Shown: positions 14,404-19,239 of the stretch, in pieces | How the letters are laid out: every line of letters begins with the position of its first letter | Position numbering within the stretch: the first letter of the stretch is position 1 | IMG/VR virus record: IMGVR_UViG_2880412407_000004 | DNA from: a virus | Lineage: Duplodnaviria; Heunggongvirae; Uroviricota; Caudoviricetes | Direction: 5' to 3' (one strand) | Length of the DNA stretch: 55,013 nucleotides | The notes under the pieces: generated by a model | What the model was told of the DNA's origin: nothing | Databases searched by the model: none | Seen by the model: only the letters and a program-made list of their open reading frames with translations | Translations under genes and position numbers: made by a program

Positions 14404-14570
14404 TTGACCCAAATCGAAGTTACGAACAAGAAAGCGTCGAGCGGGCTTTAACGTGCGCTAATTGCGGTCAGAAGCTGCATGTGCTGGAAGTTCACGTGTG
14501 TGAGTACTGCTGTGCAGAGCTGATGAGCGATTCGAATAGCTCGATGCACGAGGAAGAAGATGATGGCTAA
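14400..14570 (+). CDS. ninF: NinF-like small zinc-ribbon protein
   Basis: GTG-start [56 protein letters not shown] within ORF 14358..14570. Confidence 0.5.
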
Positions 14571-15183
14571 ACCAGCGCGAAGACGATGTAAAAACGATGA
14601 ATGTCGGGAATGGTTTCACCCTGCATTAGCTAATCAGTGGTGGTGCTCTCCAGAGTGTGGAACCAAGATAGCACTCGAACGACGAAGCAAAGAACGCGAA
14701 AAAGCGGAAAAGGCAGAAAAGGCAGCAGAGAAGAAACGACGACGAGAGGAGCAGAAACAGAAAGATAAACTTAAGATTCAAAAACTCGCCTTAAAGCCCC
14801 GCAGTTACTGGATTAAACAAGCCCAACAAGCCGTAAACGCCTTCATCAGAGAAAGAGACCGCGACTTACCATGTATCTCGTGCGGAACGCTCACGTCTGC
14901 TCAGTGGGATGCCGGACATTACCGGACAACTGCTGCGGCACCTCAACTCCGATTTGATGAACGCAATATTCACAAGCAATGCGTGGTGTGCAACCAGCAC
15001 AAAAGCGGAAATCTCGTTCCGTATCGCGTCGAACTGATTAGCCGCATCGGGCAGGAGGCAGTAGAGGAAATCGAATCAAACCATAACCGCTATCGCTGGA
15101 CTGTCGAAGAGTGCAGGGCCATCAAGGCGGAGTATCAACAGAAACTTAAAAAACTGCGAAACAGCAGAAGTGAGGTTGCATGA
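14560..15183 (+). CDS. ninG: NinG (Rap, recombination-promoting nuclease)
   Basis: 207-aa ORF with conserved Cys clusters ([10 protein letters not shown]...CSPECG; CISCG...CVVCNQHK) as in lambda NinG. Confidence 0.85.
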
Positions 15184-15845
15184 ATATCTACGAAAGAATT
15201 GATGGCAGCAAATACCGAAATATTTGGGTAGCTGGCGATCTGCATGGATGCTACACGAACCTGATGAAAAAACTGGAGACGATAGGATTCGACACCAAAA
15301 AAGACCTGCTTATCTCGGTGGGCGATTTGGTTGATCGCGGTACAGAGAACGTAGAATGCCTGGAATTAATCACATTCCCCTGGTTCAGAGCTGTACGTGG
15401 AAACCATGAGCAAATGATGATTGATGGCTTATCAGAGCGTGGAAACGTCAATCACTGGCTGCTTAATGGCGGTGGCTGGTTCTTTAATCTCGATTACGAC
15501 AAAGAAATTCTGGCTAAAGCTCTTGCCCATAAAGCAGATGAACTTCCGTTAATCATCGAACTGGTGAGTAAAGGAAAAAAATATGTCATCTGCCACGCCG
15601 ATTATTCTTGTGATAAATACGAGTTTGGAAAGCCAGTTGATCATCAGCAGGTAATCTGGAACCGCGAACGAATCAGCAACTCACAAGACGGGATCGTGAA
15701 AGAAATCAAAGGCGCGGACACGTTCATCTTTGGTCATACGCAAGCAGTGAAACCACTCAAATTTGCCAACCAGATGTATATCGATACTGGCGCAGTGTTC
15801 TGCGGAAACCTCACATTGATTCAGGTACAGGGAGAAGGCGCATGA
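15180..15845 (+). CDS. ninI: Ser/Thr protein phosphatase (lambda PPase, NinI)
   Basis: 221-aa ORF with calcineurin-like metallophosphatase motifs GDLHG, GDLVDRG, GNHE; matches lambda phosphatase. Confidence 0.9.
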
Positions 15846-15974
15846 GACTCGAAAGCGTAGCTAAATTTCATTCGCCAAAAAGCCCGATGATGAGCGACTC
15901 ACTACTGGCCACAGTTTATTGGTTTTCGTAACTGAGTCATTTTATTATTTTATTGCAACTTTTAATCTTTTATA

Positions 15975-16020
15975 GTGCGAAATAAATGGAGCTAGCATTC
16001 ATTTCGCACTTTATGTTTTT
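15975..16020 (+). terminator. Putative terminator after the nin operon
   Basis: Inverted repeat GCGAAAT...ATTTCGC followed by a T-rich segment. Confidence 0.3.
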
Positions 16021-16056
16021 GTTGGACTTATGTTATTTTGATTGAATTCAATTCAG

Positions 16057-17016
16057 TTAAAAAAAGAAGGTGATTGCTCCATTTATAAATGAATAGTCAT
16101 CCCCTGTCTTGAATTCTGATGTTACTTTATTAAATGCTAGTGTGAAGGCTACAGGTGCATACCCAATTGTTGCGCCAACTTGATATTCATCAACAGTTTT
16201 GTTTAGCGATACTGTTGTTTGTTTCGTCTGTATTGTTTTTCCTTCGAGAGTATAGTTGCGATTGACATCTCGTCTTTCCATACCTGCAAAAATCTTGTAT
16301 TTGAATCCGCTTGTATCGGACATATGCATTAAACCACGGGGAGCCAGCAGACCAAAGCCATTATCCGAATTGAAGGTTTTATCATTACCAATGGCAATGG
16401 TTGCGCCATATGCTACATATTGAAATAAGTTTCCAGTAACAGCAGAAACTTCAGGGTATAATCCAACATTAGCACCTAAAATATCCATACTTGGTGTCAT
16501 GGATAGCATCCCTTTTACAGTATAACCGTAGCGATTCTCTATTTGATCATCCCATGCATGATATTTTTCTGCCCCAATAATCTCATGAGCTTTATTTTGT
16601 ACTTTCTGACCGCCTGCGTCGGGGCCAACAACACCTATGTCAGTACCTAATCGATAGCGAATCCAGTCATTCGCAAGGGAGTTCCATTCAATACCTGTGT
16701 GAGTGTATGCGCTAAAAGCTCTGTCTCCAGTTACAGCTGTGTTGTGTCTTTTATTACTGCCTGATGGAGAGTAAATATCTTGCGCAATATGGAGAGATAA
16801 TTGGCTCGAGTCTGAGATATCGTGGCTATATCCCAGAAATAAGCCTTGTGAGTAATCATCTCTGTTTTCATGTTTATTGCCATAAATATCATTAAGTATT
16901 GGTTGAAACTTCCCTGCATCATCATTTGCTAATGATAATGCAAGGCTGTTCGCGATAGCTGAACACGTGGTAAATGACAGAGCAATAAAGACGCCAGCGA
17001 TGACACTTTTTTTCAT
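16057..17016 (-). CDS. Predicted outer-membrane beta-barrel protein (signal peptide, C-terminal aromatic residue); AT-rich cargo gene
   Basis: 319-aa ORF with N-terminal signal-like MKKSVIAGVFIALSFTTCSAIANSLA, alternating Gly/Tyr-rich amphipathic segments, terminal FFF; opposite orientation to flanking phage genes. Confidence 0.55.
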   Translation of the reverse strand: MKKSVIAGVFIALSFTTCSAIANSLALSLANDDAGKFQPILNDIYGNKHENRDDYSQGLFLGYSHDISDSSQLSLHIAQDIYSPSGSNKRHNTAVTGDRAFSAYTHTGIEWNSLANDWIRYRLGTDIGVVGPDAGGQKVQNKAHEIIGAEKYHAWDDQIENRYGYTVKGMLSMTPSMDILGANVGLYPEVSAVTGNLFQYVAYGATIAIGNDKTFNSDNGFGLLAPRGLMHMSDTSGFKYKIFAGMERRDVNRNYTLEGKTIQTKQTTVSLNKTVDEYQVGATIGYAPVAFTLAFNKVTSEFKTGDDYSFINGAITFFF

Positions 17017-17408
17017 ATGTTATTGTCTTCCTTTTTTTTGAATGGTGCGCGTATTTTACATACATGAGTTTGTAATACAAGGTGCGTAATCAATATGATG
17101 TTTTATAATTGCGTGAGACAATTGATTTATTCGTTTTTTATTGTTGTTTTTATTATCTTTTAATGTAACGGTGTTTTTATTAGGTGTGTTTGTGTGGTGT
17201 TTTATGTTTTTATAATTTTTATTTTATTAAATTTAAATGCATTAGTAATGGCTATTCTATATAGCAATATAAGAACTGTTACAAAAAAAGGGGGGGGGCA
17301 ATTACAGGTAGTTATGGATGATGAGTGAAACAGATATTGGAGAACCGGGGAATGAATGATGTCTGAGTCTTATATATCAGAACTCCTTCGCTGTCGCTGG
17401 GGGCTCCT

Positions 17409-18182
17409 GTGCTTATGTCGTTTCCCCGATTCGGTTTTGAACGATTACCGAATGTTGAAGAATTATGCCAAAATATAGAAAGGATTTACTGCATGAATAC
17501 CCAATATTTACAGTATGTTCGTGAGCAACTTATGGCAGCTACTGCTGACTTGAACGGAGCAACGAAAGGCCAGCTCGAAGCCTGGCAGGAGCATGCACAA
17601 TTTGATACTGGTACATACAAACGAAAGAAGCCGCGCATTCTGGATGTGGTAACTGGCAAGATGATTACGCTGGATAATACGCCGACTTCCGGTAAGCAGT
17701 CGTACGCAAAAGGTTCATCCATTGCTTTGGTCAGCCCGGTTGAATTCTCAACCTCTTCATGGCGCCGCGCGGTTTTGTCTCTCGATGAACATCAGAAAGC
17801 ATGGTTGCTTTGGTGTTACAGCGAAAGCGTTCGATGGGGGCATCAGGTCACCATAACGCAATGGGCATGGAGCGAGTTTAAAGATTTGTTAAGTAACAGA
17901 AAAATTGCAGGTAAGACACTGGATCGCCTGAAGACGTTAATCTGGCTGGCTGCACAGGATGTGAAGAGCGAACTTGCAGGGCGTGAGGCCTATGAATACC
18001 AGACACTGGCATCATTGGTGGGAGTGACAACAAAAAACTGGTCCGAGACATTTACTGAACGCTGGGTTGCAATGAAGCACATTTTTCTACAGCTTGATAG
18101 TGATGCTTTATTGCTTGTGACGAAAACACGTTCAAAACAAAAGGCAGCATTTTTACAGCAAAATATTGCAAAACTGGATTAA
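17409..18182 (+). CDS. Putative late-gene antiterminator (Q-like) assigned by position; family uncertain
   Basis: 257-aa ORF (possible true start MNTQYLQY at 17493) between the nin region and a hairpin plus T-run; occupies the lambda Q position but is unlike lambda Q. Confidence 0.35.
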   Translation: MLMSFPRFGFERLPNVEELCQNIERIYCMNTQYLQYVREQLMAATADLNGATKGQLEAWQEHAQFDTGTYKRKKPRILDVVTGKMITLDNTPTSGKQSYAKGSSIALVSPVEFSTSSWRRAVLSLDEHQKAWLLWCYSESVRWGHQVTITQWAWSEFKDLLSNRKIAGKTLDRLKTLIWLAAQDVKSELAGREAYEYQTLASLVGVTTKNWSETFTERWVAMKHIFLQLDSDALLLVTKTRSKQKAAFLQQNIAKLD

Positions 18183-18350: not shown

Positions 18351-19109
18351 ATGAGTTGTAAGCCAATGTTATCATCTTGTATTGGGGGGGTTATGAAGGA
18401 TGGTGCGCTGCTCAGGAGTTCTTCACTTTTTATTGCCTACATGGGATGCCTTGGATGGGGGAGTGCTTATTTCTATGGATGGGGTACTTCTTTTTACTAC
18501 GGCTTCCCATGGTGGATTGTAGGTGCAGGTGTTGATGATGTTGCCAGAAGTTTATTTTTTGCAGTTATCGTCATTGCTATATTTCTTATCGGTTGGGGTA
18601 TTGGTGTTGTATTCTTTTTCGCAGTGAAAAGAAAACATTCTATGCAAGAGCTAAATGTATTTCGCCTTTATTTTGCTGTGGAATTATTGTTTGTGCCGGC
18701 AATTATTGAGTTTTCTATATTGAGACAGAAGATTCAGGTACCTCTTTTGCTACTGTCAGCAGCGATTGCGCTGGCGGTTACAATTTCGATAAGATCTTAT
18801 GGGCGATTTTTATCGGTATCATGCTTCTATGATAAGCCATTTATAAAAAAACATTTTTTTGAGATTGTGATGATTGCTTTTGTGGCATATTTCTGGCTTT
18901 TTTCATTTCTGACAGGATATTACAAACCACAGTTTAAGAAAGAATATGAAATGATTAATTATAATGATGGTTGGTATTATGTTCTTGCTCGTTATGATAA
19001 TTGTCTGGTTTTGTCTACTTCTTTCAATGCAGGTAGTAAAAGGTTTGTCATTTATCAATCAGCACAAGATAAGAATCTTCAGGTTGATATTGTAAGGACC
19101 AGAATTTAA
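18351..19109 (+). CDS. Multi-pass inner-membrane protein of unknown function; AT-rich cargo at the stx-equivalent position
   Basis: 252-aa ORF with several hydrophobic helices (WWIVGAGV..., FFAVIVIAIFLIGWGIGVVFFFAV, VPLLLLSAAIALAVTISI, IVMIAFVAYFWLFSFL) and a C-terminal soluble region; low GC relative to phage backbone. Confidence 0.55.
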   Translation: MSCKPMLSSCIGGVMKDGALLRSSSLFIAYMGCLGWGSAYFYGWGTSFYYGFPWWIVGAGVDDVARSLFFAVIVIAIFLIGWGIGVVFFFAVKRKHSMQELNVFRLYFAVELLFVPAIIEFSILRQKIQVPLLLLSAAIALAVTISIRSYGRFLSVSCFYDKPFIKKHFFEIVMIAFVAYFWLFSFLTGYYKPQFKKEYEMINYNDGWYYVLARYDNCLVLSTSFNAGSKRFVIYQSAQDKNLQVDIVRTRI

Positions 19110-19239
19110 TTGGCTGCATAAATAATATTTTAAGTTGCAAGTTGGCTATTCGTAGGAATAGAACCTTAGGCATGCTGAATGCGTTTTCTGAACATTGTTT
19201 TATAAACTGTGTCTGCTTGCTGTTGTGATCCTGCTTTTA

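Follow-up and report, generated by a model that had tools for sequence, protein, structure and literature searches.

An lpxR cassette with an AT-rich control region in an effector-carrying lambdoid prophage, probably encoding a lipid A 3'-O-deacylase

The closest described relatives of the gene considered here are the lpxR genes of enterohaemorrhagic and enteropathogenic Escherichia coli (EHEC and EPEC, respectively), i.e. ECs_0814 of strain Sakai (prophage Sp3), Z0955 of EDL933 (CP-933K) and E2348C_0684 of E2348/69 (PP2), together with CPT_434_65 of phage 434 and lpxR of Salmonella enterica serovar Typhimurium. We analysed a 55,013-nucleotide stretch of Caudoviricetes DNA (IMG/VR record IMGVR_UViG_2880412407_000004; hereafter the window), in which an open reading frame (ORF) at 16057–17016 on the minus strand (ATG to TAA) encodes a protein of 319 amino acids (aa). 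A preliminary description, made from the sequence alone, had called this ORF an outer-membrane beta-barrel gene of the lysogenic-conversion type with a long AT-rich upstream region. Its position and orientation, i.e. on the opposite strand between the nin region and a Q-like gene, are borne out by ORF and family annotation. The ORF is very probably lpxR, a prophage cargo gene for an outer-membrane, Ca2+-dependent lipid A 3'-O-deacylase.

What is known of enzymatic activity, immune effect and control comes from literature on identical proteins. For the Sakai protein, 3'-O-deacylase activity on lipid A has been reported by Ogawa et al. 2018 (Cell Microbiol 20:e12806), whose content is taken here from citing papers (PMC6393859, PMC6863877 and PMC7649339). 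According to the same summaries, a Sakai lpxR mutant elicits stronger TLR4-dependent NF-kB and p38 signalling and is phagocytosed more, and EHEC lpxR needs both Pch and Ler and is transcribed with the enterocyte-effacement locus (LEE). Z0955 is activated 5-fold by Ler, and E2348C_0684 is activated 21- to 35-fold and is among the most strongly Ler-activated non-LEE genes (PMC3891560). The lpxR gene has been placed in the LEE/Ler modulon (PMC9263587), Z0955 drops together with the LEE in yhaO and yhaJ mutants (PMC4699771), and the Z0955 protein was detected by O157:H7 proteomics among membrane-associated (candidate lipo)proteins (PMC3210124). For Salmonella lpxR, repression by H-NS is supported by cited genome-wide data, and the gene is co-regulated with a type III secretion regulon through HilD (PMC5122947); the activator is thus HilD in Salmonella, whereas Ler and Pch act in E. 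coli.

The assignment to LpxR rests mainly on family membership and conservation of the active site. In Pfam, LpxR (PF09982) is the one family that the 319-aa protein hits, with 137.4 bits (cut-off 26) and E=6.8e-40 over residues 10–318 and profile positions 2–320 of 323; the search returned no porin or adhesin family, and none of the NCBIfam models matched. The only match among solved structures is Salmonella LpxR (3FID; E=3.6e-153, 74% identity), whose precursor has the same length (319 aa) and whose entire 296-residue mature chain aligns with one 1-residue gap. This full-length identity upholds the outer-membrane beta-barrel claim of the preliminary description, and the homology search that it had proposed leads to one family and one deacylase barrel, i.e. 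to an enzyme, neither a porin nor an adhesin.

Residues N31, D32, S56, K89, Q140, H144, E150 and Y152 of the window protein align with N9, D10, T34, K67, Q118, H122, E128 and Y130 of mature Salmonella LpxR. All eight active-site or nearby residues are kept, the only change being Thr (residue 34 in Salmonella) to Ser at position 56, and among five aligned homologues the listed active-site positions are invariant except position 56 (S or T). K67 and Y130 are further residues at or near the Salmonella site. The list of catalytic and Ca2+-binding residues (N9, D10, T/S34, Q118, H122 and E128) is that of PMC6863877, which gives them for the EHEC protein as well and describes the LpxR structure as a 12-stranded barrel; its homology models of the identical protein deviate pairwise from each other by <0.5 A.

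We predict the same 12-stranded outer-membrane beta-barrel fold for the window protein. Its residues 1–22 (MKKSVIAGVFIALSFTTCSAIA; 16951–17016, minus strand) read as a signal peptide, with an n-region that is basic, followed by a hydrophobic core and an AxA site. Cleavage by signal peptidase I is predicted after A-I-A, leaving a mature chain that begins NS, and the Salmonella chain that was crystallised, a mature form, aligns from S24, which corresponds to its residue 2. The C-terminus reads ...ITFFF and ends in Phe; an aromatic C-terminal residue is typical of barrel proteins.

We then compared the locus with its closest relatives. The window protein is 100% identical to Sakai ECs_0814, EPEC E2348/69 WP_000750155.1 and phage 434 UMO75329.1 (i.e. 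CPT_434_65). ECs_0814 is annotated as 'lpxR: lipid A 3'-O-deacylase', current RefSeq also names the gene lpxR, and the phage 434 gene is annotated as 'outer membrane beta-barrel lipid A deacylase'. The Sakai coding sequence differs from that of the window by two synonymous nucleotides (99.8% identity) and lies in the same gene order (i.e. NinG, phosphatase, lpxR on the opposite strand, Q82-type Q and membrane protein) within a prophage that differs elsewhere. E2348/69 also has lpxR with a lambda Q remnant on one side and ylcG-Q on the other, but the nin region that precedes it is a different one. The leaders of Sakai and E2348/69 are ~97% identical to that of the window, with a few substitutions and a homopolymer tract of G7 versus G9. 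Phage 434, a free temperate phage isolated in the 1950s, carries the same cassette between a lambda Q remnant and ylcG and a Q82-like Q (98.7% DNA identity over 15850–17420), with a tract of G6 versus G9; of the window's first 25 kb, roughly one third has no counterpart in 434. Identity to the characterised EHEC LpxR takes away the novelty of the finding, although the observation itself stands. Both the gene and its position are already known, and the preliminary description was correct but unspecific.

More distant relatives are the LpxR of an E. coli plasmid (WP_032220516.1, pJNE23-001_1; 80% protein identity) and that of Citrobacter sp. ANG330 (73%). Both are of the same family and length, with invariant active-site positions and AT-rich upstream DNA (30% and 32% GC, respectively). 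The plasmid copy lies among insertion sequence (IS) remnants, not in a lambdoid prophage, and its alignment with the window is confined to the coding sequence, ~46 bp of leader next to the gene and the terminator hairpin; alignment of the Citrobacter copy is limited to the coding sequence. The plasmid copy (48957–49916 of NZ_AP045065.1; 83% DNA identity) represents a second LpxR lineage in E. coli; it is found near an M91 zinc metallopeptidase gene and has the same terminator hairpin.

The lpxR gene belongs to a discrete cassette of 1434 bp (15913–17346; edges set by homology) that consists of a terminator hairpin, lpxR and an AT-rich control region, has a GC content of 35.8% (measured over 15913–17355) and is flanked by a lambda-type nin region on the left and by a ylcG-Q module of the phage-82 type on the right. 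On the left, megablast homology to lambda and its relatives ends at 15912, which corresponds to lambda 43956, 70 bp into lambda Q. On the right, homology to rus-orf45-Q of phage 82 (X92588.1) and to PhiR47_2 begins at 17347 (read at query position 148–149 of 17200–17750), 9 bp before the ylcG-like ORF, and in phage 82 rus-orf45-Q is present without lpxR. A 29-aa remnant ORF of a lambda-type Q (15842–15931, plus strand) spans the left edge; its first 20 residues are identical to lambda Q, after which it diverges, and its counterparts are annotated as an N-terminal Q fragment (phage 434) or a partial antitermination pseudogene (RefSeq genomes). This mosaic junction with its Q remnant is also kept in phage 434, Sakai Sp3 and E2348/69 PP2, and the functional Q of this prophage is the phage-82-type gene at 17493–18182 instead of the lambda-type remnant. 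With its discrete insertion, deviant composition, own putative terminator and candidate promoter, the unit appears to be a lambdoid-phage 'moron'. That this low-GC cassette of 1.43 kb occurs in lambdoid prophages as well as in temperate phage 434 agrees with the earlier view of the gene as lysogenic-conversion cargo.

The putative terminator is a perfect 15-bp inverted repeat with a 7-nt loop (15974–16010), 47 nt downstream of the lpxR stop codon. It was found by reading and folding the sequence, and a simple consensus terminator scan called no terminator. As minus-strand RNA the hairpin folds with -19.1 kcal/mol (z = -7.0; none of 200 shuffles as good), and as plus-strand RNA with -16.4 kcal/mol (z = -2.8). 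The hairpin region is also kept (80%) beside the diverged plasmid lpxR copy. It is probably the transcription terminator of lpxR. Since a T-rich run (16011–16025) follows on the plus strand, the hairpin may also act on rightward pR-derived transcription.

Upstream of lpxR lies an AT-rich control region or 5' leader (17017–17346), the lowest-GC stretch of the window and the presumed site of silencing by H-NS, which Ler and Pch would relieve. The interval 17017–17355 has a GC content of 29.2% compared with 50.0% for the window, a level this low being found in only 0.2% of 339-bp windows; the minimum for that length in the 55 kb is at 17000–17338 (27.4% GC), and the core at 17040–17290 falls to 25.1%. 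The plus strand of 17017–17355 is T-rich (T 145, A 95, G 73 and C 26), and the leader holds 12 A/T tracts of at least four bases, a density of 35 per kb that is ~3-fold that of the whole window (11.5 per kb). Judging by its GC rank and A/T-tract density, the AT-rich character noted earlier is real and well beyond chance. Its length, however, is ~330–340 bp rather than about 390 bp, because the plus-strand interval 17356–17478 is a YlcG-family ORF.

Several candidate signals can be read in this leader. A Shine-Dalgarno sequence, AAGGAAG, is located at 17027–17033 (minus strand), 10 nt upstream of the lpxR ATG, and the corresponding position in phage 434 carries an annotated ribosome-binding site. 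A candidate proximal promoter (17053–17080, minus strand) consists of a -35-like TTGTAT (17075–17080), a 16-nt spacer and a -10 TAAAAT (17053–17058); the consensus promoter scan did not call it. The only upstream DNA that can be aligned with the diverged (80%) plasmid copy is the ~46 bp of proximal leader before the ATG, in which the ATGTAAAATAC block lies. That this stretch and the terminator hairpin are the sole non-coding parts to align with the plasmid lpxR mildly supports the proximal promoter and the hairpin as belonging to the gene. The scan did call a distal promoter-like site, GTAACA-17-TAGAAT (17254–17282, minus strand; 9/12 consensus matches), just downstream, in the lpxR sense, of a homopolymer tract. 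An Rfam scan of 15700–17600 with E up to 1 matched no RNA family, so the leader contains no known small RNA or riboswitch. A 44-aa plus-strand ORF at 17194–17328 was rejected as a gene: its frame shifts between copies across the variable G tract.

This tract, A7G9 at 17283–17298 (C9T7 in the lpxR sense), varies in length between near-identical copies and adjoins the GTAACA-17-TAGAAT site. The window has G9, strain 2014C-4423 has G8, Sakai and E2348/69 share G7 and phage 434 has G6, and in 50 IMG/VR contigs that carry the leader it reads, in the lpxR sense, C6 in 20, C7 in 25 and C8 in five, next to T6–T8. The variation could reflect either slipped-strand events or homopolymer sequencing error.

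The lpxR coding sequence is present in 621 of 5426 complete E. coli genomes; in 619 of these the identity is 99% or more, the remaining two copies being plasmid-borne with about 83% DNA identity. The 339-bp leader occurs once per genome in the same 619 genomes at 95–99% identity, and this one-to-one co-occurrence shows that gene and leader move as one unit. Carriers among the matches listed include O157:H7, O55:H7, O111, O121:H19 and O103 strains and EPEC E2348/69, and the best match over 15850–17420 is to O121:H19-type strains (99.9%). Among deposited phage genomes the cassette is found in phage 434 only. In the 50 IMG/VR contigs, 44 of the 48 readable LpxR copies are identical and the other four differ by one residue. 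A peptide-pattern scan of genome contigs gave one locus (Citrobacter), with patterns so specific that this says little about spread outside E. coli.

The loci studied in the regulatory literature encode the identical protein and have leaders ~97% identical to that of the window. The preliminary description had likened the AT-rich DNA to an H-NS-silenced promoter. This idea is well motivated and is indirectly supported by the Ler and Pch activation of identical copies, since Ler is described as activating genes by antagonising H-NS (PMC3891560); direct H-NS binding or occupancy data for the E. coli lpxR promoter were not found in the literature. H-NS has been reported on prophage effector genes expressed together with the LEE (PMC4764244), and ECs0814 is not named in the text of that study or in the supplements examined. 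We propose that H-NS most likely silences the ~330-bp control region of the cassette in the resting lysogen and that lpxR would be switched on by Ler and Pch together with the LEE type III secretion regulon. The precursor would then be exported by means of its 22-residue signal peptide and inserted into the outer membrane as a 12-stranded beta-barrel, where the Ca2+-dependent site (N31, D32, S56, Q140, H144 and E150) would hydrolyse the ester at the lipid A 3' position. Loss of the 3'-acyloxyacyl unit would convert hexa-acylated lipid A to an under-acylated form, which as a weaker TLR4/MD-2 agonist could reduce inflammation and phagocytosis. Seen in this way, the surface properties that the gene had been suspected of altering would be, specifically, the acylation of lipid A, as the literature on identical LpxR indicates. 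Evidence on the suggested change in access to phage receptors, in either direction, was not found.

Two observations weigh against this proposal. The consensus scan of the region gave five promoter-like sites compared with 6.2 expected from shuffles; since their number does not exceed the shuffled expectation, the promoter positions are candidates only. The identical gene in phage 434, a classical laboratory phage that comes from a non-LEE background, indicates that the cassette is not confined to hosts with Ler and Pch and that the gene may be silent in other hosts.

A search of 15913–17355 for the high-affinity H-NS motif TCGATAAATT found no site within two mismatches. Control by MicF, which has been reported to repress Salmonella lpxR, was also considered. 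The 5' end of MicF has a 9-nt perfect complement, AAUGAUGAU, at 16910–16930 (lpxR codons 30–34), over the catalytic N-D-D codons; the match spans codons 31–33. With a best duplex (-13.3 kcal/mol) that 20% of shuffled seeds equal, the pairing is no better than with shuffled seeds, and control as in Salmonella was dropped.

Alternative readings concern both the protein and its expression. Older annotation of ECs0814, Z0955 and E2348C_0684 as a porin-like or 'SfpA-like' outer-membrane protein would imply transport or adhesion rather than catalysis. This is extremely unlikely given a Pfam match to LpxR alone, 74% identity to a solved LpxR enzyme with the full catalytic and Ca2+-binding set kept and the deacylase activity that the citing papers report for the Sakai protein; moreover, the label has been superseded by lpxR in current RefSeq and Sakai annotation. 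Processing could also differ from that predicted above if the mature protein were a lipoprotein lipidated at Cys18 instead of a barrel processed by signal peptidase I. Z0955 has been listed among candidate lipoproteins with the atypical lipobox FTTC18S (PMC3210124), and exactly this motif (F15-T16-T17-C18-S19) is found in the window protein. FTTC nevertheless deviates from the usual lipobox at positions -3 to -1, the Cys is missing from both the plasmid-borne E. coli homologue and the Citrobacter homologue, the crystallised Salmonella chain aligns only from past the A-I-A site, and the barrel fold requires no lipid anchor, all of which make lipidation highly unlikely.

A third alternative accepts an LpxR enzyme but regards the gene as a silent passenger in this host and the AT-rich spacer as a compositional residue of a foreign cassette, with no regulatory role. 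It would account for the identical gene of phage 434 outside a LEE context, for the failure of the scan to find a strong consensus promoter and for the fact that only ~46 bp upstream of the ATG are common to the diverged plasmid copy. By contrast, a leader that is single-copy and 95–99% identical in all 619 carrier genomes, and a coding sequence at least 99% identical in these genomes with identical proteins in 44 of 48 viral contigs, point to purifying selection or recent spread. In addition, the activation of identical loci by Ler ranks with the strongest outside the LEE, and four NleG effector genes in the same prophage imply a LEE-positive host. We therefore regard a silent passenger as very unlikely here; it could still apply to hosts without Ler and Pch, e.g. 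laboratory lysogens of phage 434. An lpxR gene for a lipid A deacylase, activated with the LEE, is the reading that we prefer.

Whether the control region does more than drive lpxR was considered separately. Delayed-early transcription derived from pR would have to cross the lpxR terminator hairpin and then run antisense through lpxR to reach Q, and prophage induction could shut lpxR off through such antisense transcription. The control region lies directly upstream of ylcG-Q, where an H-NS filament that Ler and Pch relieve might link late-gene expression of the prophage to the virulence regulon, and the hypervariable C/G tract (G6 to G9) at the distal end of the leader could add heritable, phase-like variation to either output. 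The hints of such a wider role are two, i.e. the tract-length polymorphism and the 2-fold activation by Ler of E2348C_0685, the adjacent 'late gene regulator' in EPEC (PMC3891560), and we consider it improbable.

On the preferred reading, lpxR is a virulence-associated lysogenic-conversion gene that provides attaching-and-effacing E. coli with under-acylated endotoxin during type III secretion and hence with lower TLR4 signalling. LpxR has, moreover, been put forward as a vaccine antigen conserved in EHEC and EPEC (PMC6863877). For the window, the value of the result is one of annotation: it marks a prophage with virulence cargo and defines the boundaries of the cassette, and it leaves current understanding unchanged. 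The variation of the tract from G6 to G9 and the Ler-responsive AT-rich DNA that abuts ylcG-Q are modest loose ends.

The neighbours of lpxR (i.e. NinG, a NinI-type Ser/Thr phosphatase and a Q-type antiterminator) are all on the plus strand. NinG (PF05766) occupies 14560–15183 and the phosphatase 15180–15845. The YlcG-family small ORF (17356–17478, plus strand; 40 aa) is annotated in RefSeq genomes and phage 434, is homologous to orf45 of phage 82 and is the first gene of a phage-82/DLP12-type late-regulator module; it falls inside the interval that the preliminary description had assigned to lpxR and its upstream region. The divergent neighbour of lpxR is a Q82-type late antiterminator gene (17493–18182, plus strand; 229 aa, MNTQYL...; PF06323, E=8.7e-92) whose DNA is 87–89% identical to Q of PhiR47_2 and of phage 82. 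Its start is most likely the ATG at 17493 and not the GTG at 17409, because the MNT... start is annotated in phage 434, Sakai and other genomes.

Elsewhere in the prophage, four genes for NleG-family (PF06416) type III effectors lie in low-GC DNA at the right end (50179–50754, 51039–51626 and 51694–52329 on the plus strand and 53590–54240 on the minus strand). These four genes suggest that the prophage carries effectors for a LEE-positive strain, which would have Ler and Pch available. Two minus-strand ORFs of 352 aa (52457–53515) and 139 aa (54254–54673), located among the NleG genes and with no Pfam match, may be further effector or cargo genes, and the second-lowest-GC part of the window (52877–53215, 28.6% GC) falls in their region. 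The third-lowest stretch (18805–19143, 29.5% GC) overlaps a gene for a 252-aa multi-pass membrane protein (18351–19109) just downstream of Q, which has no Pfam or NCBIfam match and is conserved in phage 434, Sakai (ECs_0816) and E2348/69. Also downstream of Q, a SASA/DUF6645 carbohydrate esterase gene is split into two ORFs (19651–20193 and 20254–21501) and is annotated with an internal stop in a near-identical genome; it is followed by an IS66-family element with its transposase gene at 22887–24443.

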